A stretch of 34,763 nt of DNA from Candidatus Magasanikiibacteriota bacterium (lineage in GTDB: Bacteria; Patescibacteriota; Patescibacteriia; Magasanikbacterales; GWA2-37-8): contig JAVHOZ010000065.1 in the NCBI GenBank assembly GCA_036170335.1, positions 524-35,286 on the forward strand, given 5' to 3'. Every line of letters starts with the position of its first letter. Position 1 is the first letter of the stretch. Position numbers and translations under genes: made by a program. Below are positions 895 to 13,608 of this stretch, one piece after another. The notes under the pieces were generated by a model. That model was not told the DNA's origin. It saw only the letters and a program-made list of their open reading frames with translations, and searched no databases.

Positions 895-1130
895 GGTTTT
901 TCGCACCTTGTGTAAAAGCGAACGTTAGAGTGCGTTGATGGAACGCGCCCTACGATAGGCCATTTCGGCCAGCCATGTTCGTCGGCGAGAGATCGCTAGC
1001 GGATCGGTTCACCGGGGCACGCAAGTGCCCCACCATCTTGAATTCATAATCCCGATTGTGAGTTGAAGATGGAAATATAACTATCTCCATGACAAAAAAT
1101 ATCACCCTTCTCTCGGGTGATTTTTTGTTT
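895..1130 (+). repeat. 3' module copy A: shared left arm (about 895-958), 110-nt GC-rich insert (959-1068), shared right arm with hairpin and terminator (1069-1130)
   Basis: 911-958 (tgtaaaagcgaacgttagagtgcgttgatggaacgcgccctacgatag) matches 1930-1977. 1069-1130 (atggaaatataactatctccatgacaaaaaatatcacccttctctcgggtgattttttgtt) matches 1978-2037. The segment 959-1068 is absent from copy B and contains the hairpin ggggcac-gcaa-gtgcccc at 1014-1031. Confidence 0.85.
1101..1128 (+). terminator. Intrinsic terminator after the collagen-like gene
   Basis: Stem atcaccc (1101-1107) pairs with gggtgat (1115-1121). A T-run follows and an A-run precedes. Confidence 0.75.
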
Positions 1131-1157
1131 TGTATGTTTCTCGAACAATACAAGCGA

Positions 1158-1186
1158 TAGACAAAAAACATAATTTATGTTATATT
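1158..1186 (+). promoter_or_regulatory. Putative sigma70-type promoter for the HEPN/NTase pair
   Basis: TAGACA (1158-1163), 17-nt spacer, TATATT (1181-1186), about 22 nt upstream of the ATG at 1209. Confidence 0.45.
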
Positions 1187-1208
1187 TTATCTGACCTATC
1201 AACATATT

Positions 1209-1619
1209 ATGTCAGAAGAGTTAAATATTAATAAAGTAATAAAATATTGGTTGGAAACAGCTAAACATGACTTTGAAACAATGTCCGGTTTGTATAAAAT
1301 AAAACGTTATTCTGATTCTCTTTTTTTCGGTCATATTGTTTTGGAGAAAATTTTAAAAGCTCACGTTGTTGCCACCACAAATGATCACGCTCCTCGTTTG
1401 CACGATTTGGCCAGATTGAGCGTGTTGGCCAAAATTAATTTAACAAAAGAACAACTAATATTTTTAAAACAAGTTAGTGATTTTAATATTGCCACTCGTT
1501 ATCCGGATTTTAAGTTTAATTTTTATAAAAAATGTACACCAAAGTTTACCAAAGAATATTTAGATGAGATCAAAAAGATATATTTTGAATTATGTCAAAA
1601 GTTGAAGCCAAAAAAATAA
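1209..1619 (+). CDS. HEPN domain protein (putative toxin partner of a HEPN/minimal-nucleotidyltransferase module)
   Basis: 136 aa. Pattern A..D......L......S.LFFGHIVLEKILKAHVV....HDLARL....ATRYPD matches the classical HEPN fold signature (helix with EK.LKA, HDL, C-terminal RYP). It overlaps the downstream NTase gene by 28 nt. Confidence 0.8.
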   Translation: MSEELNINKVIKYWLETAKHDFETMSGLYKIKRYSDSLFFGHIVLEKILKAHVVATTNDHAPRLHDLARLSVLAKINLTKEQLIFLKQVSDFNIATRYPDFKFNFYKKCTPKFTKEYLDEIKKIYFELCQKLKPKK

Positions 1620-1903
1620 TCCAGCAGTATATTCAAGTATTAAGAACAAATGGTTTTAAAATCACTTCTGTTTATCTTTTTGGTTCTATGATAAATGGAA
1701 AATCAACCAAGTATAGTGATATTGATGTGGCGGTAGTTACTCAAAAGAAAGGAAACCACAATCAAGATCGTCGACGTTTGTTTTTGGCTGGTCTACAGGT
1801 AGATAATAGGATTGAATCACATTTATTTTCAAAAAAAGATTTCTCGGATATTAACAATCCCTTGGTGTACGAAATTCGTAAAACCGGGATAAAAATACTG
1901 TAA
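1592..1903 (+). CDS. Minimal nucleotidyltransferase (MNT / NTP_transf_2-like), partner of the HEPN protein
   Basis: 103 aa with the pol-beta-type NTase motif LFGSMINGKSTKYSDIDVAVV (G-S ... D-x-D). Translationally coupled to the HEPN gene. Confidence 0.8.
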   Translation: MSKVEAKKIIQQYIQVLRTNGFKITSVYLFGSMINGKSTKYSDIDVAVVTQKKGNHNQDRRRLFLAGLQVDNRIESHLFSKKDFSDINNPLVYEIRKTGIKIL

Positions 1904-1910
1904 TATAATA

Positions 1911-2037
1911 TCACGACCTTGCTTCTTAGTGTAAAAGCGAACGTTAGAGTGCATTGATGGAACGCGCTCTACGATAGATGGAAATATAACTATCTCCATG
2001 ACAAAAAATATCACCCTTCTCTCGGGTGATTTTTTGT
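1911..2037 (+). repeat. 3' module copy B (uninterrupted version of 895-1130), including the terminator
   Basis: accttg...tgtaaaagcgaacgttagagtgcattgatggaacgcgctctacgatag is joined directly to atggaaatataactatctccatgac...atcacccttctctcgggtgattttttgtt. The junction lies between 1977 and 1978. Confidence 0.85.
2010..2037 (+). terminator. Intrinsic terminator after the HEPN/NTase pair
   Basis: Stem atcaccc (2010-2016) pairs with gggtgat (2024-2030), followed by a T-run. Sequence is identical to the terminator at 1101-1128. Confidence 0.75.
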
Positions 2038-2053
2038 TATCCACAGTTTAGCG

Positions 2054-2082
2054 TTGGTTTGTGGGGTAAAAAGGTGTATAAT
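2054..2082 (+). promoter_or_regulatory. Putative promoter for the AbiEi/AbiEii pair
   Basis: TTGGTT (2054-2059), 17-nt spacer, TATAAT (2077-2082). Confidence 0.45.
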
Positions 2083-2125
2083 ATGAAGGTATACGTTTCT
2101 GTTTTTTATTATTTTTAATAATAAA

Positions 2126-2752
2126 ATGAAATATGATGATCTAGAAAATAGCTTATTTAAGCAAAAACCAGTTTTTGATGCCAAAGATATCAAATTGGCT
2201 GGTTTTCGTGTTTTTCCTTATCAATTTAGTTATTGGGTTAAAGATGGAAAAATTAAAAAATTGGCTAATGGTTTTTATGCTTTTGCTAAAGCTGAAATCA
2301 AGACAGAGTATATAGCCAATTTATTACAGCAGCCTTCTTATATTTCATTACAATATGCTTTATATTATTACAATTTAATAGTGGATATTCCGTTTCATAT
2401 CACTTCTGTCACCACCAAAAATACTAGAAAAACAAAAGTTGATGACGCGGTTTATTTTTATCAACATGTTAAGCCATCACTATTCAACGGTTTTGTGATA
2501 GCAGGTAGTCAAGAAAAAATAGCTGGAAATTCATTTATGATTGCCACTCCCGAAAAAGCATTGGTGGATTTGTTTTATTTAAATCCCACACGTTTCAAAG
2601 TTGAAAGTGATTTTTTTGAGGCACGTTTTCATGAAGATGAAATGAAGAAAAAAATTGATTGGCGCGGTGTTTTTAATATAGCCGCTTTGTACAAGAATAA
2701 AAATTTAGAAAAAAGATTACACAATTTTAAAAATTACATTTTTTCCAATTGA
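2126..2752 (+). CDS. AbiEi-like antitoxin / transcriptional regulator (type IV TA, abortive-infection AbiE family)
   Basis: 208 aa. The N-terminal segment (FDAKDIKLAGFRVFPYQFSYWVKDGKIKKLANGFYAF) looks like the AbiEi winged-helix domain. It sits directly upstream of, and is coupled to, an AbiEii-type NTase gene. Confidence 0.7.
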   Translation: MKYDDLENSLFKQKPVFDAKDIKLAGFRVFPYQFSYWVKDGKIKKLANGFYAFAKAEIKTEYIANLLQQPSYISLQYALYYYNLIVDIPFHITSVTTKNTRKTKVDDAVYFYQHVKPSLFNGFVIAGSQEKIAGNSFMIATPEKALVDLFYLNPTRFKVESDFFEARFHEDEMKKKIDWRGVFNIAALYKNKNLEKRLHNFKNYIFSN

Positions 2753-2754
2753 TT

Positions 2755-3537
2755 ATGATGAATTTGGAACAAATTATTTTATTTTCCAAAGAAACCGGGT
2801 TGCCGTCTGGTCGTGATAAACAAGCTTTGGCTGAGTATTTACAGTGTATTATTTTGCAGATAATTGCCAATAGTGACTTTGTTGATAAATTAAGCTTTAT
2901 TGGTGGCACTAGTTTGAGATTTTTTTATGGATTACCTAGGTTTTCTGAAGATTTGGATTTTGATAATTTTGGATTATCTCAGGATAATTTTACCAAATTA
3001 ATAAATGTAGTGAGTAAAAATCTCATCAATCAAGGTTTTGTAGTTGAATGTAGTATCAAGATAAAAGGTGCGTATCATTGTTATGTTCGATTTGATAATT
3101 TATTATTTCAAAATAAACTGTCGTTGCATGCTAACGAAAAAATATTGGTAAAAATTGACACGGTACAACAAGATTTTACTGTTCAAAAAGATCATAAGTT
3201 TTTTAATCGATATGGTATTGTAGAGGAAATGAATATTAATTCACTCGATATTTTGATGGCACAAAAAGTATTGGCTATTTTGGGTAGAAAGACTTCCAAA
3301 GGTAGAGATTTTTTTGATTTTACTTTTTTGGATGGTTTGACCAAACCAAATCTGAATTATTTAGATCACAAGATAGGTATCAAGACTATGTCACAGCTCA
3401 AAGAGCGTTTGTTGCAACGTTGTGCCGAAGTTGATTTTAAAGAAATGGCGCGCGACGTGGAACCGTTTTTATTTAATCACGATGACGTGATCCGGATTAC
3501 CAAATTTCCACAATATATTACGGGGTGGAATGTATAG
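2755..3537 (+). CDS. AbiEii/AbiGii-family nucleotidyltransferase toxin (DUF1814-like)
   Basis: Hallmark motif FIGGTSLRFFYGLPRFSEDLDFD. The track start at 2749 is TTG; the first ATG is at 2755, 3 nt after the AbiEi stop (2750-2752). Confidence 0.8.
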   Translation: MMNLEQIILFSKETGLPSGRDKQALAEYLQCIILQIIANSDFVDKLSFIGGTSLRFFYGLPRFSEDLDFDNFGLSQDNFTKLINVVSKNLINQGFVVECSIKIKGAYHCYVRFDNLLFQNKLSLHANEKILVKIDTVQQDFTVQKDHKFFNRYGIVEEMNINSLDILMAQKVLAILGRKTSKGRDFFDFTFLDGLTKPNLNYLDHKIGIKTMSQLKERLLQRCAEVDFKEMARDVEPFLFNHDDVIRITKFPQYITGWNV

Positions 3538-3554
3538 TTTTGAAAACTAAAAAT

Positions 3555-5003
3555 ATGTTTAAAAAATCCAGACAAGACAATCACCCCAATTTGCTGTTTC
3601 CGCGGTTGTCGCCTTGGGAGCAGGAGTTTACTTTGGGGGCGGGGGCGATTTTGTTGTTTTGGTCGTTGTTGTTGCTTTTGCCGTTGCAGTTGTTTGTGAG
3701 TTTTGGTTTGGTGTTGCTGGGCTTGTTTTTGGTGACCGCTTTTATTTTTAAACTTGAATTACTTTTTTATATTTTAACCACAGTTTCTTTTTTTACCGGT
3801 TGGGAAATTTCTTTTTCCAAATATGAATGGGCGAGAAATATTGTGTATCTATCTTCGGTCAATGCACCACTGGGAGATTTTATCGGAGCGATGTTGTTGG
3901 GGTTGTCGACGCTCGCGATTGTTTTTGGATTTTTGCATCCCGCTTGGAAAGATAAAAAAATATTATTAAAAGTTTCTGGTTGGTATAGTTTGTTTTTGGT
4001 GTGGTCGTTGGTTTGCGCATTGCTGGCAATGGATCATAATTGGATAATCAGTTTAAAATATCTGGTGCGCAATATGTTGTTTGTCTATTTGGCGTTTGTA
4101 ATTTTGCCGGTGATTTTGATAGACAAATTAGACACGATAAAAAATATTTTAAAAATTTGGTTTGGGGTGGGGTTGTTGACGGCACTATTTGGTTTTTCTT
4201 CGCTATACTTTTTTGCGCAGAGCGGTTGGCCGCGGGTGACGCCGTATGGTATCGCTGGGTTTGCTCCGTTGGGATACAATCACAATTTGATCGCGGAGAT
4301 GCTGGTAGTGGTTTTACCGGCCGGTCTGTATTTATTTTTTAAAGCTAAAAACAAGCAACAAAAACGATGGTATTTTTTTGGATTGATTTTTACACTGCTC
4401 GCGGCGTTGTTGACATTGTCGCGCGCGGCGTGGATTACTATTTTTGCGCAATTAGCGGTGTTGGGAGTGGTGTATTTTTCGCAGGTAAAGACTATTTTAA
4501 AGAAAATTAGTCATCTCAATTTTTATTTGTTTTTAGTGGGGTTGATATTGTTTGGATATATGATTTTCTTTTTGACTTCACCGATCGTGCATAGTTCAAA
4601 CAGTTCACGTTTTGCGATGACCGACATTTCATTTTTTATGGCCAACCGTTCACCGCTTCATGGCTATGGTCCGGGGATGTTTATGGAGATACTTGGCAGC
4701 GTGCGCGATTGGACTCAGGAATATGGCGATGCGCTGGATTCACATGGTATTGTGCAGAAGATAATTGTCGAGGACGGCTATGTTGGATTAATTTTTATTT
4801 TATTATTTTTTGTTTATTTATTTAAAAAATTGTGGTTGGTATATCGGATGTCGGATGATAAAGAATTATATATGATATTATTCATGTCAGCGGTAGGGGC
4901 GGTGGTGTTTCAATTTTTCAACACTTCATATTTTGTCAGTGTGATGTGGTTGCCAATTGGTTTGGCCTTGAGCGCCGCGACATTATTGAAAAAAGATTTG
5001 TAA
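3555..5003 (+). CDS. O-antigen ligase / Wzy-like polytopic membrane protein
   Basis: Many predicted TM segments plus the Wzy_C-like motif LLTLSRAAWITIFAQ. The track start at 3525 overlaps the AbiEii stop; the ATG at 3555 (MFKKSRQ) avoids the overlap. Either start is possible. Confidence 0.7.
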   Translation: MFKKSRQDNHPNLLFPRLSPWEQEFTLGAGAILLFWSLLLLLPLQLFVSFGLVLLGLFLVTAFIFKLELLFYILTTVSFFTGWEISFSKYEWARNIVYLSSVNAPLGDFIGAMLLGLSTLAIVFGFLHPAWKDKKILLKVSGWYSLFLVWSLVCALLAMDHNWIISLKYLVRNMLFVYLAFVILPVILIDKLDTIKNILKIWFGVGLLTALFGFSSLYFFAQSGWPRVTPYGIAGFAPLGYNHNLIAEMLVVVLPAGLYLFFKAKNKQQKRWYFFGLIFTLLAALLTLSRAAWITIFAQLAVLGVVYFSQVKTILKKISHLNFYLFLVGLILFGYMIFFLTSPIVHSSNSSRFAMTDISFFMANRSPLHGYGPGMFMEILGSVRDWTQEYGDALDSHGIVQKIIVEDGYVGLIFILLFFVYLFKKLWLVYRMSDDKELYMILFMSAVGAVVFQFFNTSYFVSVMWLPIGLALSAATLLKKDL

Positions 5004-5006
5004 TAT

Positions 5007-6071
5007 ATGCAACATATTGTACAGGTGATACCGGCATTGGGATACGGGGGAGCCGAACGGTTGGTGGTGGATCTTGTTAATCATAGTGATAGCGCGAAAT
5101 ATCGATTTACGGTAATTGTTTTTTTTGATAATTTGCCGCTGAAGTCGTTGATTGAAAAAAAGGCCAATGTTATTTTGATAGAAAAAAAATCCAAATTTGA
5201 TTTTAGTTTTTTAAATAGATTGGAGAAAAAATTAGTGGAGTTGAAACCGGATCTTGTGCATGGACATCTTTTTGCCGGAGATTTTTGGGGACGACTCGCG
5301 GCCCATCGGTTGAGTGTGCCATATTTGAGTACTGAACACAATCTGAATTACGACGACGGTTGGTTGAAAAATTTTGTGAAAAAAATGGTGTCCAGTGAGC
5401 AAGATTATTTTGTGGCTTGTTCTTTGACGGTGTCGGATTATATGCGTACGGTTTATAATATTAAAAATGAAATCAGAGTAATATCCAACGGTATTGAATT
5501 GAATCGTTTTACCAATTTAACACCAATCACTTGGCACAACCCGCTGCGGTTTTTGATGATTGGCCGGTTGACAAAACAAAAAGGTCAGTTGGTAGCTTTG
5601 TCGGCCTTGAAGAAAATTACCAATCATCATTGGCATTTGACAATAGTAGGGTCGGGGATTGAGAAAAATAATTTGCTGGATTTTGTTAGAAAAAATAATT
5701 TACAAGATAGGGTGGAATTTGTGGAACCTTTGGTTCGGGTGGAAAAATATTTTGGTGAAGCGGATGTTTTTTTGATGCCCTCTGTTTGGGAGGGTTTGGG
5801 TGTGGTAGTGATGGAAGCAATGGCTAGTGAGCGAGTGGTGTTGGTGTCCAAAACCGGTGGACTGACGGAGCTGATTCAAGATCAAGAAACCGGTTATTTT
5901 TCAAAACCACAAAATATTTTGGATTGGGAGAAAAAAATAAAATATATTATTGAAAATAAAAACGAAGCACATCGATTGGCCAAAAATGCCAAAATTTATG
6001 CCAAAGAAAATTTTGGTGTTAAAAAAATGATCGAAAAATATGATAAGGTTTATTCTATAATTATACAATGA
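5007..6071 (+). CDS. Glycosyltransferase, GT4 (GT-B fold) family
   Basis: N-terminal GYGGAERLV motif and C-terminal E-x7-E region (PSVWEGLGVVVMEAMASERVVLVSKTGGLTELI). Confidence 0.85.
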   Translation: MQHIVQVIPALGYGGAERLVVDLVNHSDSAKYRFTVIVFFDNLPLKSLIEKKANVILIEKKSKFDFSFLNRLEKKLVELKPDLVHGHLFAGDFWGRLAAHRLSVPYLSTEHNLNYDDGWLKNFVKKMVSSEQDYFVACSLTVSDYMRTVYNIKNEIRVISNGIELNRFTNLTPITWHNPLRFLMIGRLTKQKGQLVALSALKKITNHHWHLTIVGSGIEKNNLLDFVRKNNLQDRVEFVEPLVRVEKYFGEADVFLMPSVWEGLGVVVMEAMASERVVLVSKTGGLTELIQDQETGYFSKPQNILDWEKKIKYIIENKNEAHRLAKNAKIYAKENFGVKKMIEKYDKVYSIIIQ

Positions 6072-6094
6072 TTCCCGTTTTCGCGGGAATGACA
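6070..6094. repeat. Single unit of the GTCATTCCCG...CGGGAATC palindromic repeat family
   Basis: gattcccgttttcgcgggaatgaca, with a 7-bp stem attcccg/cgggaat. It overlaps the last base and stop codon (6070-6071) of the GT4 gene and fills most of the spacer before the radical SAM gene. Confidence 0.85.
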
Positions 6095-6110
6095 ATTATT
6101 GCAAAAAAAT

Positions 6111-7103
6111 ATGAATACAAAAATGCCAATAGACTGTGTCTTGGCACTGACTTACGACTGCAATGCGCGTTGTACGATGTGTGATATTTGGAAAATAAAA
6201 GATTCTCCGGCCTTGTCTTTGACGGATTTGGCCAAATTACCCGATAGTCTTTTGGATGTGAATTTATCCGGTGGGGAACCATTTTTGAGGAAAGATTTAC
6301 CGGAAATTGTGGCGGTGATAAAAAAGGCTTGTCCAAAAGCGCGCTTGGTAATTTCTTCCAACGGATTTTTGACGCTGGTAATAAAAAAAGCGATGACGGA
6401 AATTTTGAAAATCGCACCCGACATTGGAGTGGCTTTTTCGATTGATGGTATCGGACAGATGCACAATGAGATGCGTGGCATACCGGGTGGTTTTGACAGG
6501 GTGATGGATTCGCTCAAACTGCTCAAAAGTATGGGCATGACCAATCTGCGTTTGGCTTTCACGATTACCGAATACAATGTGAATCATTTTGCCAAAGTTT
6601 ATGATTTGGCGCAGGAGCTGGGTGTGCAATTTACTCATAGTTTTGCTCAAAGCAGTGAATTTTATTTTGGTGGTAAAAAAAATATAAACAACCCGCGTAA
6701 AGATTTGCTGGAAGTGGCATACAAATATATTATCAATAGTGAACTGAAAAGTTGGAATGTGAAACGCTGGCTACGTGCTTATTTTGCCAATGGTATGTTT
6801 CGATTTATTACCAGTAAAAATCCGGTGTTGGACAATGCTCCGGGACGTGATTTTTTCTTCATCGATCCTAGTGGCGATATTTATCCATCGGTGATGCACA
6901 ATGTGATACTCGGAAATATTTCTCAAGTTGATGATTTTGCAAAATTTTGGCAAAGTGCAGAGGTGGAGGAAAAACGCAAAAAAGTAGATGAGTTGAAAAT
7001 GCCGGTTTGGATGATCTGCACTGCGCGTACAGCCATAAAAAGTCATCCGCTCGCAGTCGGTTGGTGGATTTTGAAAAATAAAATATTTGGATATAAATCG
7101 TAA
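6111..7103 (+). CDS. Radical SAM enzyme
   Basis: CX3CX2C cluster motif in LALTYDCNARCTMCDIWK and a downstream GGEPFL SAM-binding motif. The track start at 6099 is TTG; the first ATG is at 6111. Confidence 0.8.
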   Translation: MNTKMPIDCVLALTYDCNARCTMCDIWKIKDSPALSLTDLAKLPDSLLDVNLSGGEPFLRKDLPEIVAVIKKACPKARLVISSNGFLTLVIKKAMTEILKIAPDIGVAFSIDGIGQMHNEMRGIPGGFDRVMDSLKLLKSMGMTNLRLAFTITEYNVNHFAKVYDLAQELGVQFTHSFAQSSEFYFGGKKNINNPRKDLLEVAYKYIINSELKSWNVKRWLRAYFANGMFRFITSKNPVLDNAPGRDFFFIDPSGDIYPSVMHNVILGNISQVDDFAKFWQSAEVEEKRKKVDELKMPVWMICTARTAIKSHPLAVGWWILKNKIFGYKS

Positions 7104-7104
7104 C

Positions 7105-7166
7105 TGTCATTCCCGTGTAAACGGGAATCCAGAATTAATTAGATTCCCGTTTACACGGGAGTGACA
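7105..7166. repeat. Inverted pair of GTCATTCCCG...CGGGAATC units
   Basis: tgtcattcccgtgtaaacgggaatc (7105-7129), 12-nt spacer, gattcccgtttacacgggagtgaca (7142-7166). It fills the gap between the radical SAM stop and the GT4 start. Confidence 0.85.
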
Positions 7167-7172
7167 AAAAAT

Positions 7173-10749: not shown

Positions 10750-11325
10750 ATGACGGAGAATACCTACACCGGTCCGAACATCGATTCGGAGAAGAAGTTT
10801 TTTGGCGCCGGCGCTCCGATGAGTGGCGGACTGTTCGTCGCGATTGGCTTGGCGGTGGTGGCGGTGGTTTTGGCCATCGTCGGCATCAACATGGCCAACA
10901 ACGCCGACACCCACGCCACTTCGATCGAGAAGTCGGTCAGCAAGCTGGGCGATGCGCATGACGCGCTCGCCAAGTACGTCCATGAGGAGCACGACTGGGT
11001 CGTCGCTCGGCTCGCGACGAAAGCCACGGCGACGACGGTCGACGAAGCGATCGCGACTCTGACGGCGAAGGCCGACAAGAGCGTGGTCGACAAGTTGACC
11101 GAGGAGTTGAAGACGAAAGCGTCTAGCTCCACCGTCACGAGGCTGGCCAGCGATCTCCTGATGAAGGCTGACGCGCAAGCGGTCAAGCGGATCGCGCGGC
11201 GAGTTCAAAAGATGGACACGCGTGTCAACAATCTGGTTGACTTGAACAAGTTGATCGAGGTTGCTCCCGCTGCTCCGCCCGCAGCCAAGCCGCCGCTTCC
11301 GGCCGCGGCACCGGCTGCCAAGTAG
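10750..11325 (+). CDS. GC-rich membrane-anchored repeat protein (N-terminal TM segment, about 16-aa K-A-D-type repeats, Pro/Ala-rich C-terminal tail)
   Basis: GGAGG at 10740-10744, 5 nt before the ATG at 10750 (the track ORF starts upstream at 10678). TM segment GGLFVAIGLAVVAVVLAIVGI. Repeats LATKATATTVDEAIAT / LTAKADKSVVDKLTEE / LKTKASSSTVTRLASD / LLMKADAQAVKRIARR. Tail APAAPPAAKPPLPAAAPAAK. GC3-rich codons throughout. Confidence 0.75.
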   Translation: MTENTYTGPNIDSEKKFFGAGAPMSGGLFVAIGLAVVAVVLAIVGINMANNADTHATSIEKSVSKLGDAHDALAKYVHEEHDWVVARLATKATATTVDEAIATLTAKADKSVVDKLTEELKTKASSSTVTRLASDLLMKADAQAVKRIARRVQKMDTRVNNLVDLNKLIEVAPAAPPAAKPPLPAAAPAAK

Positions 11326-11460
11326 TCCGTCCCACGCAACGTGGGCATCGTAGTCAGTACACCATGTTTTTTGATGGTGATGACTCGATGAGGACGCAAA
11401 ATCCCCAAAAGGGTGCCTGTGACGCAAGTCACAGGCATACCGCTTAGTAAATAAAATTTG
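11326..11460 (+). other. Conserved structured 3' module (copy 1) between the stop codon and the terminator
   Basis: Hairpins cccacg-caa-cgtggg (11331-11345), caccat-gttttttg-atggtg (11360-11379) and cctgtgac-gcaa-gtcacagg (11416-11435). Invariant 25-mer aggacgcaaaatccccaaaagggtg (11391-11415). Conserved trailer acc-gcttagtaaataa. Homologous to 12420-12552. Confidence 0.7.
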
Positions 11461-11480
11461 TTTATTGAGCCGATTAAAAA

Positions 11481-11508
11481 ATCACCAAATCAATCTGGTG
11501 ATTTTTTA
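11481..11508 (+). terminator. Intrinsic terminator after GC-rich gene 2
   Basis: Stem atcacca (11481-11487) pairs with tggtgat (11496-11502), followed by a T-run and preceded by an A-run. Confidence 0.75.
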
Positions 11509-11520
11509 TTTTTTTTAAAT

Positions 11521-11545
11521 TGTCATTCCCGTGCAAACGGGAATC
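11521..11545. repeat. Single GTCATTCCCG...CGGGAATC unit
   Basis: tgtcattcccgtgcaaacgggaatc in the AT-rich spacer between the two GC-rich genes. Confidence 0.85.
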
Positions 11546-11663
11546 TTATTTTTGACAAAACACATCAATTGTGGTTTTATAGTATCCAGTGCGAATAGTG
11601 GCTAGTTTGGAATTTCCAATCGGCCAGGCTCAATTGGTCAAGTTTTTGGAGGAAAAGAGGAAC

Positions 11664-12419
11664 ATGGATACTCAACCTTTTGTTATTGGTGCTACGGCGC
11701 CTAAACCCCCGGTGTCTGATCCTGACGAAAGTCGTCATGGTCAAGTTCTCGATCTTCAAGAGATGCGTCGGCGTCTGGCGGAAAAGAAGAATCCGACTGT
11801 CAAGGATGCACTTGAAGCGTTGAGTGTTGAACGCGCTCAAACGGACCAGCTGACCATTCGGGTTGCCGATCTGGAGAACGACAAGCTCAAGGACAACAAG
11901 CACTTCGGTGCCAATGTGTCCGAGGTCGCCAAGCCGCTCATCGCTACGGCTGTTCAGACTTCATACCGGAAGATCTGGAGTGTCGCGGTTGTGGCTGGCT
12001 TGGTTCTGCTGGCTGTGGTCACGGTCGGCGTCTGGTCGCATCAGGCACTCAAGTCTCGGGTTTCACTGGTGGAGTACGGTTTGACCGCTAAGGCCGATCA
12101 GGCTCAGGTGGACAAGATCGTGTCTCAACTCACGACCAAGGCGGACAAGTCCGAGCTCAAGGCTATTGAAGCCAAGGCAGACCGCTCGGTTGTCGAACGT
12201 CTCAGCCAAGAGCTCAAGGAGAAGGACGGCGCGCACGACGCACGTCTCAACGATCTGGCCACGGATCTGATGTCCAAGGCCAATCAAGAGGAGGTTGAAA
12301 AGCTCTCCGCTCGTCTGCGCTCAACTCGCTCCAAAATTCGCTCGCTCGAACAGCGGATGAAGGAGTTCTCGACTTCGGTTCCAGCGCCGGCTCCAGCCGT
12401 TCCGCCCAAGACCATGTAG
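11664..12419 (+). CDS. GC-rich membrane-anchored repeat protein, paralog of 10750-11325 with a longer N-terminal cytoplasmic-type region
   Basis: ATG at 11664 is preceded by ggaggaaaagagg (the track start at 11589 is GTG). Central TM segment IWSVAVVAGLVLLAVVTVGVW. Repeats LTAKADQAQVDKIVSQ / LTTKADKSELKAIEA / KADRSVVERLSQE / LMSKANQEEVEKLSAR. Pro/Ala tail VPAPAPAVPPKTM. Confidence 0.75.
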   Translation: MDTQPFVIGATAPKPPVSDPDESRHGQVLDLQEMRRRLAEKKNPTVKDALEALSVERAQTDQLTIRVADLENDKLKDNKHFGANVSEVAKPLIATAVQTSYRKIWSVAVVAGLVLLAVVTVGVWSHQALKSRVSLVEYGLTAKADQAQVDKIVSQLTTKADKSELKAIEAKADRSVVERLSQELKEKDGAHDARLNDLATDLMSKANQEEVEKLSARLRSTRSKIRSLEQRMKEFSTSVPAPAPAVPPKTM

Positions 12420-12552
12420 TCCACCCATGCAATGTGGGCAATGAGATCTGTTTGCTTTGTTTTTGAAAGCGAACTACTCTAGAAGGACGCAAAATCCCCA
12501 AAAGGGTGTCCCGACTTAGTCGGGACTACCTGCTTAGTAAATAATTTTTTTG
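12420..12552 (+). other. Conserved structured 3' module (copy 2)
   Basis: Hairpins cccatg-caa-tgtggg (12424-12438), gtttgcttt-gtttttg-aaagcgaac (12450-12474) and tcccgac-tta-gtcggga (12509-12525). The identical 25-mer lies at 12484-12508. Trailer acc-tgcttagtaaataa. Confidence 0.7.
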
Positions 12553-12572
12553 TTTATTTAGTATATTAAAAA

Positions 12573-12598
12573 ATCCACCGTTGTTTGGTGGATTTTTT
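12573..12598. terminator. Bidirectional intrinsic terminator between convergent genes
   Basis: Stem atccacc (12573-12579) pairs with ggtggat (12587-12593). An A-run lies upstream and a T-run downstream. It sits between the plus-strand gene ending at 12419 and the minus-strand gene ending at 12611. Confidence 0.7.
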
Positions 12599-12610
12599 AA
12601 TTGATACAAA

Positions 12611-13537
12611 TTATTTACCGGTGATTAAACATACCACTGATCCATCAAATTTCCAATTTTGTTTTATGGCTTGTTGTAATCCAACAATTGCGAGCGCGCT
12701 ATTTGGTGATAATTTTATTTTTTCAGTTTCTTCTACTAGTTTGATTGTATTTTTTATTTGTTGGTCGTCGGCTATCCAACCAAAACCGTGACTGTTTGTT
12801 ATATCGGCGGTTACCATTTCTTTGCGGTGAGCAATGTTATCCACGATTGCGCCGGCCAGTGATGTCTTTGTCATTCCCGCAAAAGCGGGAATCTTGGTTG
12901 TGTCGACAGATTCCCGCTTTTGCGGGAATGACAATAAAAATTTTTCTGTAATCGGATGCACTGCGCTAGTTTGTACAATATGAATTTGAGGATTTAGTTT
13001 TAATTTTTTAAAAGCAGCGTGAAGTCCTTGGGCGGTAGTACCACTGGATGTTGGGATAAAAATTGCCGATAGATTTTTTATTTTATTCAATTCCAGAGCA
13101 AGTTGTTCGTATCCGGTTAGGGCAGTATCATCTATCGACTGGCGTAATATTTTGGCCTTGCCGGATTTGTCGATTTGAAAAGCTGATTGTTTTGGATTTT
13201 TTATTTTTATTAAAAATATATTTTTGGATAATATTTTTGTTAATATTTTTTCTTTGGCTTTGTCAATTTTTTCACCCACAAAAATTTGTAAAGTCAGTTT
13301 GTTTTTGTGTGTCCGATTAAATTTTTTAATATACAAACCAGCGGCCAAAGCGGCATTTCCGGAAGAAGATATTACAAAATTAGCAAGTCCTTGTTTGACA
13401 TAAAAATCTACCATCAGTGGTATAGAACGGCCTTTGTGTGACCCAAGCGGGTGTAAATCTTCTCTTTTGAAGTAAAGAGGCGCTTCCAAACCCAGTGTTT
13501 TAGCCAATTTTTGATGTTTTGTTTGAGGGGTTATCAT
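12611..13537 (-). CDS. PLP-dependent enzyme of the tryptophan-synthase-beta / threonine-synthase-like fold, carrying an in-frame repeat-derived insertion
   Basis: Lys-containing motif EDLHPLGSHKGRS (compare the S-F-K-D-R PLP-lysine motif), a Gly-rich loop FIPTSSGTTAQG and a C-terminal CLITG. The track start at 13549 is TTG; the ATG is at 13537. Residues LSFPQKRESVDTTKIPAFAGMTK are encoded by the repeat pair at 12869-12933. Confidence 0.7.
   Translation of the reverse strand: MITPQTKHQKLAKTLGLEAPLYFKREDLHPLGSHKGRSIPLMVDFYVKQGLANFVISSSGNAALAAGLYIKKFNRTHKNKLTLQIFVGEKIDKAKEKILTKILSKNIFLIKIKNPKQSAFQIDKSGKAKILRQSIDDTALTGYEQLALELNKIKNLSAIFIPTSSGTTAQGLHAAFKKLKLNPQIHIVQTSAVHPITEKFLLSFPQKRESVDTTKIPAFAGMTKTSLAGAIVDNIAHRKEMVTADITNSHGFGWIADDQQIKNTIKLVEETEKIKLSPNSALAIVGLQQAIKQNWKFDGSVVCLITGK
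12869..12933. repeat. Inverted pair of GTCATTCCCG...CGGGAATC units located inside a coding sequence
   Basis: tgtcattcccgcaaaagcgggaatc (12869-12893), 15-nt spacer, gattcccgcttttgcgggaatgaca (12909-12933). The host ORF stays open through it. Confidence 0.85.
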
Positions 13538-13608
13538 AGGTCTTGCCAAAAGTGATTATTTTTGATATACTTGTTTTTGCTTTCGTAATTTAGTTTAATT
13601 ATGCTCTT

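Follow-up and report, generated by a model that had tools for sequence, protein, structure and literature searches.

We analysed a stretch of 34,763 nucleotides (hereafter the window; positions 524 to 35,286, forward strand, of contig JAVHOZ010000065.1, assembly GCA_036170335.1) from a Candidatus Magasanikiibacteriota bacterium. In it, a gene pair for a HEPN-domain protein and a minimal nucleotidyltransferase (MNT) lies between two copies of a structured sequence, the first of which (copy A) contains 110 nt that the second (copy B) lacks. The feature is an ordinary lineage-specific duplication plus deletion beside an inserted toxin-antitoxin cassette. In the account that we consider likely to be correct, copy A belongs to a conserved, native 3′ trailer of an upstream GC-rich surface-protein gene (module A), the lineage gained toxin-antitoxin cassettes, and copy B is a duplicate lacking the 110 nt. 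The outcome is deflationary: neither a new small mobile element nor an intron nor a cassette system of the integron kind is present in the window. The elements of the trailer and of its duplicate, all on the plus strand, are as follows (GC3 denotes GC content at third codon positions).

3-839: collagen-repeat gene, 3′ part; GC 63%, GC3 0.75; Pfam Collagen, E = 1.2e-14; its C-terminal domain ends in GNLHLSKAQLGCP before the stop codon
840-899: strain-specific start of the trailer, holding hairpin a (852-895, by folding); not in the relatives (alignment columns 10-56 are window-only)
900-1130: module A, a conserved multi-hairpin 3′ trailer (RNAalifold consensus, terminator scan)
900-922 and 923-954: hairpins b and c; the loop of c is UUGAUGGAA
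958-970 and 973-1007: hairpins d and e of module A (RNAalifold)
1014-1031 and 1033-1072: hairpin 3 and hairpin f of module A (RNAalifold)
959-1068: the 110 nt, previously termed an insert; hairpins d, e and 3 with the 5′ arm and loop of f
1069-1090: alternative hairpin g (ATGGAaATA/TATcTCCAT)
1101-1121, T-tract to 1130: bidirectional intrinsic terminator (terminator scan)
1929-2038: copy B, an internally deleted duplicate of module A that retains the 3′ arm of b, hairpins c and g, and the terminator

A repeat finder aligned 910-958 with 1929-1977 at 96% identity (47/49, the differences being G934/A1953 and C949/T1968) and 1067-1129 with 1976-2038 at 100% (63/63); these halves are called X1 and X2 below. 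Copy A spans 220 nt (910-1129) and copy B 110 nt (1929-2038), which agrees with the preliminary description of this stretch, made from the letters alone, in that the 110 nt are found only in the upstream copy. Copy B has a single AG (1976-1977) where copy A has one at either edge of the surplus (957-958 and 1067-1068), so that 957-1066, 958-1067 and 959-1068 are equivalent ways of delimiting the 110 nt; the junction ctacgatag/atggaaata with its ambiguous AG is present in the window as had been reported. Copy B begins about 8-25 nt after the MNT stop codon and equals the trailer from about 900/910 to 1130 minus the 110 nt. In an nhmmer comparison its similarity starts at 1921, and weak likeness may reach 8-18 nt further upstream of copy B. 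Terminator prediction places an identical bidirectional intrinsic terminator in both copies, at 1101-1121 in A and 2010-2030 in B.

Two independent assemblies contain the same forms. Logan contig L001 (SRR25490541) runs from the GC-rich gene through a copy A that has the 110 nt to the HEPN gene, and in Logan contig L002 (SRR25490523) the toxin-antitoxin pair is joined to a copy B that lacks them; both equal the window base for base. Relatives' contigs and Logan unitigs do break at or near the module, as might be expected if a repeat-induced misjoin had made the second copy or the deletion during assembly. However, these two other sequencing runs reproduce every junction exactly, and the X1 copies differ at two bases and are thus distinct loci, so that an assembly artefact has next to no chance of being the explanation.

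Which of the two forms is ancestral is settled by related loci, recovered through homologues of the neighbouring GC-rich gene at 11664-12419 and then with a conserved pattern from the module's 3′ half. They are L010/L013 (GCA_943359595.1), L014 (JGI Ga0066640), L016 (JGI Ga0066639) and L015 (OBEQ012998036.1); the closest GTDB genome to the window is a Candidatus Magasanikbacteria metagenome-assembled genome (MAG). A full-length module including the 110 nt occupies the same position in all four loci (L010, L014, L015, L016), with a mean column identity of 89% over the 110 nt, and none of the four is an empty site. In each relative the module directly follows a GC-rich gene with a homologous C-terminal domain. 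Over the C-terminal ~110 amino acids the window protein and the Cys-rich GC-rich protein of L014 share 35% identity (E = 2e-17), and both end in SKAQLGCP; a word-indexed search for homologues of the C-terminal domain of the collagen-like protein had returned none, but direct pairwise comparison with L014 did show homology. On the other side of the module, the start codon of the wzy-like gene lies ~45 nt past the terminator in L014, L015 and L016, with no toxin-antitoxin genes between; this gap holds a promoter-like TTGTAT-17-TACAAT, which in L014 and L015 stands between the terminator and the wzy ATG. L010 has an AbiE pair at that site, which is not orthologous to the AbiE pair of the window. 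A more distant relative shows a 288-nt gap between the upstream gene and wzy, compatible with a full module. This layout points to the ancestral order GC-rich gene, full module, wzy. Since four relatives carry the 110 nt in an orthologous module, the polarity is that of a loss from copy B. The comparison shows the 110 nt, as judged by orthology, to be an ancestral, GC-rich central domain of the trailer and not an insertion; on the same grounds the HEPN/MNT pair, copy B and the AbiE pair are evidently additions in the lineage of the window.

Around the module, the N-terminal parts of the upstream proteins are wholly unlike, with collagen repeats in the window and Cys-rich DNNPCT repeats in L014 and L015. 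The window also has ~46 additional nt (within 840-897) immediately behind the collagen-like gene's stop codon; this segment, which forms hairpin a (CTTCACCCGGTT...AACCGG...GTGAAG), is missing from L014 and L015.

The preliminary description had raised the possibility that the 110 nt are a small insertion element or an intron-like segment. A mobile insertion resembling a miniature inverted-repeat transposable element (MITE), or an intron-like segment, residing in copy A with copy B as the empty site would suit the coexistence of filled and empty forms 1 kb apart, the 2-nt ambiguity of the junction and the GC-rich, strongly folded nature of the segment. We give this explanation hardly any credence. 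The segment sits at the same place in four related loci and its helices carry compensatory changes, hairpin f pairs across the 3′ boundary with the flanking ATGG, and copy B is the younger, derived form. Its ends (gccatttcgg... and ...gagttgaag) are not inverted repeats and share only the 2-nt AG. Searched with Rfam at gathering thresholds, the whole window gave no match, and at E ≤ 5 the region 800-2150 gave only weak, chance-level matches, none of them to an intron or ribozyme.

Searches for further copies of the segment, as had been proposed, returned nothing but orthologous ones from GTDB, the JGI metagenomes, IMG/VR and 118 kb of related loci. The window itself holds no second copy. A scan with a conserved X2-half pattern found one site in the GTDB genomes, in the related MAG, and three contigs in the JGI metagenomes, all orthologous. 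A profile hidden Markov model together with a covariance model, built on the module or the insert and run over 118-130 kb of window and related loci, recovered nothing beyond orthologous copies and copy B in its two halves; in the 118 kb of related loci, covariance model R1 located the 110-nt segment at orthologous sites only. Two IMG/VR matches to a 17-mer of the insert were discarded as chance, as R1 did not match them. An exact X1 22-mer (GTAAAAGCGAACGTTAGAGTGC) had no match in the GTDB genomes or the JGI metagenomes; being too strict, it was replaced by a pattern conserved between the window and L010. The segment thus occurs elsewhere only as part of an orthologous module, and copy B is a local deletion derivative, which is in essence the outcome that the preliminary description had set against its own cassette reading. 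Among the options it listed, the one that stands is that the 110 nt are the part deleted from copy B, given the four filled relatives with covarying helices and the lineage-specific bases that B shares with A.

The covariation was assessed on an RNAalifold consensus of the four orthologues, with structures slid by 1-3 columns and 500 shuffles as controls. Standard pairs fill 98.4% of the cells. Both partners have changed in ten pairs, of which hairpin c holds six, helices 5 and 6 of the 110 nt three and the terminator one; slid structures gave 0-2 such pairs, and none of the 500 shuffles equalled the observed value. These four sequences lend moderate but consistent support to a module A structure conserved through compensatory substitutions across species. 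The hairpin ggggcac-gcaa-gtgcccc, noticed earlier inside the 110 nt, is hairpin 3 at 1014-1031, and its GCAA loop is ATTAA in L010 and L015. The 3′ arm of hairpin f (AAGATGG) spans the right edge of the 110 nt, and its ATGG can alternatively pair in hairpin g, the form that is kept in copy B. The heptamer GATGGAA occurs twice in module A, in the loop of hairpin c and at the f/g position.

About 24 cells of the consensus are G-U pairs, and the plus strand folds 13-20 kcal/mol better than the minus strand in three of the four orthologues, both of which suggest that the folded molecule is an RNA with the sense of the upstream gene; the terminator at the 3′ end is a further, indirect sign of transcription on the plus strand. 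We infer from these fold predictions that module A is an RNA co-transcribed with the GC-rich gene, terminating and probably stabilising its mRNA; it may also have a function beyond termination. The trailer is a candidate for a conserved, covarying, multi-hairpin RNA of ~230 nt that has no Rfam entry. A bolder possibility is that module A is a functional RNA of Magasanikbacteria not described before, which might bind a protein or act as a regulatory RNA of the 3′ untranslated region (UTR), with two conserved GAUGGAA motifs and a separable central GC-rich domain. Copy B would then not be a duplicate in decay; selection would have kept it as a minimal form, with hairpin c, hairpin g and the terminator, that was recruited to regulate or stabilise the HEPN/MNT transcript. 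We regard this as improbable. In a still more extreme variant a processed RNA would have been copied into DNA to give copy B, a thought suggested by the coincidence of its 3′ edge with the predicted transcript end.

As to the origin of copy B, A and B share three states that are missing from all relatives: GCGAACG (where the relatives have GCGGACG), TATCACCC and GGGTGAT. They differ at 2 of 112 aligned bases, each a private change, compared with 8/112 between A and L015, and at both differences one copy retains the state of L015 (A retains G934, B retains T1968). The shared derived bases and the few differences indicate that B arose by copying of A, or of A's direct forerunner, once the lineage had separated from the nearest relative sampled. 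By this count of substitutions the duplication that produced copy B is shown to be recent. Copy B might instead derive from a short paralogous module elsewhere in the genome that was brought in with the cassette, its likeness to A being maintained by gene conversion. Only 35 kb of the genome are visible, and the contrast between an X2 half at 100% over 63 nt and an X1 half with two differences could also be the product of a crossover or a conversion tract. Nevertheless, the related GTDB MAG has a single match to the X2 pattern, which is orthologous, an extra unseen locus would be needed, and one private change per copy fits simple divergence after duplication; a paralogous source is unlikely.

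The features between the terminator of module A and wzy, all on the plus strand, are the following.

1131-1157: left junction; TTGTAT (1131-1136) matches the wzy -35 element of the relatives, and cassette DNA starts shortly after
1158-1186: promoter-like site of the cassette, TAGACA-17-TATATT with a TG extension; kept upstream of the L003 HEPN gene
1209-1619: HEPN-domain protein, 136 amino acids (PF05168, 59 bits, cutoff 22)
1592-1903: minimal nucleotidyltransferase, 103 amino acids (PF18765, 47.2 bits, cutoff 26.9; PF01909), with a 28-nt overlap with the HEPN gene
2126-2752 and 2749-3537: AbiEi and AbiEii (PADLOC, E = 1.4e-45 and 7.7e-80), a second inserted pair
3555-5003: wzy-like O-antigen ligase gene (PF04932), with an N-terminus, MFKKSRQDNHPNLLFPRLSPWEQEF, that matches those in L014, L015 and L016

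That a HEPN/nucleotidyltransferase pair lies between the copies had been recognised earlier, and Pfam agrees (PF05168 at 59 bits, PF18765 at 47 bits). By its domains and overlapping genes it classifies as a predicted toxin-antitoxin pair; the MNT protein scored 37.6 bits against the MntA equivalog NF047752 of NCBIfam, below the 60-bit cutoff, and so does not qualify as a type VII antitoxin by that model. The HEPN protein has 334 homologues, mostly from Patescibacteria, and an exact-protein look-up of the MNT protein yielded nothing further. The nearest cassettes, L003, L004 and L005 (80%, 77% and 57% HEPN identity), keep both genes, with the same overlap, and in L003, the closest, the promoter region TAGACA-17-TATATT (from about window 1158) is kept as well. 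No module-like sequence lies on either side of HEPN/MNT in any of the three. L003 and L004 end differently from the cassette of the window, which suggests that the cassette brings a promoter but lacks a terminator peculiar to it. A DnaA-box-like motif, TGTGGATAA, seen near copy B and upstream of related cassettes, was dropped because it is as frequent in the window as expected (12 observed, 11.4 expected).

These cassettes bear on the proposal of the preliminary description that the region is organised as cassettes with a portable 3′ end, in which case the module would be a recombination site in the manner of attC and HEPN/MNT would have arrived with a module of its own. Direct repeats do bracket the toxin-antitoxin pair, the same intergenic site took different toxin-antitoxin cassettes in two lineages, and neighbouring GC-rich genes also have structured 3′ ends. 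On the other hand, Pfam identified no recombinase or integrase among the 28 larger open reading frames of the 35-kb window, and the module forms several separate hairpins in a row instead of one imperfect palindrome, and no R′′/R′ pair of core sites can be discerned in it by eye. Moreover, the HEPN/MNT relatives lack the module, each related genome including the MAG has one match, at the orthologous site, and copy B carries the strain's own derived bases and was hence copied locally. The other 3′ modules of the window are not detectably homologous: neither nhmmer nor a covariance model linked module A to those at 11326-11500 and 12420-12600, and the "same architecture" ascribed to hairpin 3 and the modules behind the other GC-rich genes comes down to a generic resemblance. 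A portable end is therefore very unlikely.

With module A as a resident trailer and copy B as its local duplicate, the likely course of events is as follows. In the native state, trailer A would have ended in its intrinsic terminator upstream of wzy. Toxin-antitoxin cassettes would have landed between this terminator and wzy, HEPN/MNT with its own promoter and the AbiE pair separately, and a partial second copy of the trailer (roughly 900/910-1130) would have been placed behind the HEPN/MNT cassette. The rearrangement would have been replicative, with either a tandem duplication of the trailer, at whose junction the cassette lies, or a template switch during insertion. Either during the duplication or afterwards, copy B would have lost hairpins d, e and 3 and half of f by a 110-nt deletion between two AG dinucleotides; a 2-nt AG microhomology, and the omission of those GC-rich hairpins that fold most stably, are what slippage or template switching typically leaves behind. 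What is left of copy B would now provide the toxin-antitoxin operon with hairpin c, hairpin g and a terminator. The TTGTAT that immediately follows copy A is similar to the -35 element of the ancestral wzy promoter, which suggests that copy A is the resident and copy B the displaced one.

Several points weigh against this account. The left breakpoint is ambiguous, as the short, AT-rich segment 1131-1164 resembles both the ancestral wzy promoter and the region upstream of the cassette in L003. Neither a cassette without copy B nor a copy B with the 110 nt was found, and the order and mechanism of events are inferred only, because no such intermediate state turned up. The search of this genome covered 35 kb, so that copy B may still stem from a short paralogous module outside that part. 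The structural argument draws on four distinct orthologues only, in which hairpin 3 and most of hairpin f are invariant and thus uninformative. A transcript that runs through the module, and the place where it ends, are predicted from sequence and folding, and any role other than termination is conjectural. The further suggestion that the repeats permit loss of the toxin-antitoxin pair by homologous recombination is plausible to the extent that direct repeats of 49 and 63 nt are available, but no contig with such a variant was found; exact-protein look-ups (AbiEi, glycosyltransferase) for strain variants without the toxin-antitoxin pair found neither on record.

In the terminator-wzy gap (1131-3554 in the window, 215-1115 in L010), the window holds HEPN/MNT and AbiEi/AbiEii (208 and 262 amino acids), L010 a 68-amino-acid protein and a 221-amino-acid AbiEii, and L014, L015 and L016 nothing of the kind. 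From this distribution the gap looks like a local insertion hotspot at which unrelated toxin-antitoxin cassettes were taken up independently, and hence like a repeated landing site for different cassettes in this clade of Magasanikbacteria.

The window is a chromosomal piece of a member of the Patescibacteria (candidate phyla radiation, CPR), with mur ligases, MraY, a penicillin-binding protein, MurB, glycosyltransferases and wzy. Its GC-rich genes at 3-839, 10750-11325 and 11664-12419 have GC3 values of 0.63-0.81, compared with 0.22-0.47 in neighbouring host genes. Four related genomes have orthologues, with protein identities as low as 53%, that are equally GC-rich (GC3 0.61-0.90), in the regions given here.

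L007: 3494-5137
L010: 7132-8903
L014: 600-2120
L017: 1386-3147

The 5′ and 3′ UTRs of these units are GC-rich too, and their promoters and terminators are AT-rich. The GC-richness across species indicates that it is kept for whole transcription units and is not the trace of a recent transfer. A literature search combining Magasanikbacteria with GC-rich found no papers, and an IMG/VR search with GC-rich gene 3 gave a single, spurious match. Units that are GC-rich even at synonymous sites and in UTRs across AT-rich CPR species form a pattern that deserves its own study. Behind two paralogous GC-rich membrane/coiled-coil genes stands a second family of structured 3′ modules (window 11326-11500 and 12420-12600; L010 7855-8040 and 8905-9085). 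It consists of three hairpins with compensatory changes, an invariant single-stranded GGACGCAAAATCCCCAAAAGGGTG, an AT-rich hairpin and a terminator, is conserved in L010, folds far better than shuffled sequence (z = -10 and -6.3) and has no Rfam match.

A repeat finder also returned a multi-copy palindromic element, GATTCCCG-N5-CGGGAATGACAA, distinct in sequence from the 110-nt segment; it is this element that does behave as a small dispersed repeat in the window, with six copies located at 6065-6096, 7101-7129, 7142-7167, 11518-11546, 12868-12894 and 12908-12934. Inverted copies (6065-6098 and 7101-7167, with 29-nt arms that are 90% complementary) bracket a radical S-adenosylmethionine gene (6099-7103), which is missing in L010, where the two glycosyltransferase genes are adjacent, and present in a more distant relative (P0128 contig). 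A perfect inverted pair of the palindromic element (TTGTCATTCCCGCAAAAGCGGGAATCT) lies at 12868-12934, in frame in a gene for a pyridoxal-phosphate (PALP) enzyme (12611-13549, minus strand). There the PALP protein, compared with its 81%-identical L010 orthologue, has a divergent stretch that is 14 amino acids longer (...SFPQKRESVDTTKIPAFAGMT...). By analogy, the pair resembles the in-frame insertions of Rickettsia palindromic elements.

Among known systems, integron attC cassettes share a superficial layout with the window, in which open reading frames are followed by structured repeats with toxin-antitoxin cassettes between them. Unlike an integron, the window shows no integrase but only cell-envelope and metabolic genes among the 28 frames scanned with Pfam; the module folds into independent hairpins and a terminator, with its 5′ and 3′ ends unpaired and no core sites, and the repeat is a local duplicate that homologous cassettes elsewhere do not share. 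With MITEs and palindromic elements (Rickettsia palindromic elements; repetitive extragenic palindromic sequences and bacterial interspersed mosaic elements, REP/BIME) the 110-nt segment has in common that it is small, structured and richer in GC than its surroundings, but it is single-copy and orthologously conserved, with neither terminal inverted repeats nor a target duplication. The gene pair between the copies is reminiscent of the type VII system HepT/MntA, which likewise joins a HEPN protein and a minimal nucleotidyltransferase in overlapping genes, a pair widespread in Patescibacteria. It differs in its gene order (HEPN, then MNT), in a HEPN domain of the PF05168 type and in an MntA score under the cutoff, and its toxin-antitoxin role is a predicted one. 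Segmental duplications with microhomology deletion, of the template-switch type, are matched in the 49- and 63-nt direct repeats that bracket an 800-bp insertion, in the 2-nt microhomology of the deletion and in near-identical repeats with strain-specific bases in common; here, however, the mechanism is deduced, with neither intermediates nor polymorphic junctions found. Finally, compared with structured 3′ UTR and terminator-proximal RNAs (3′ stabilisers and 3′ UTR-derived small RNAs), module A belongs to no Rfam family, is unusually long at ~230 nt with six to seven hairpins, and lies in a transcription unit that is GC-rich throughout within an AT-rich genome. Like these RNAs, it stands behind a stop codon on the sense strand and combines hairpins that carry compensatory changes with an intrinsic terminator.

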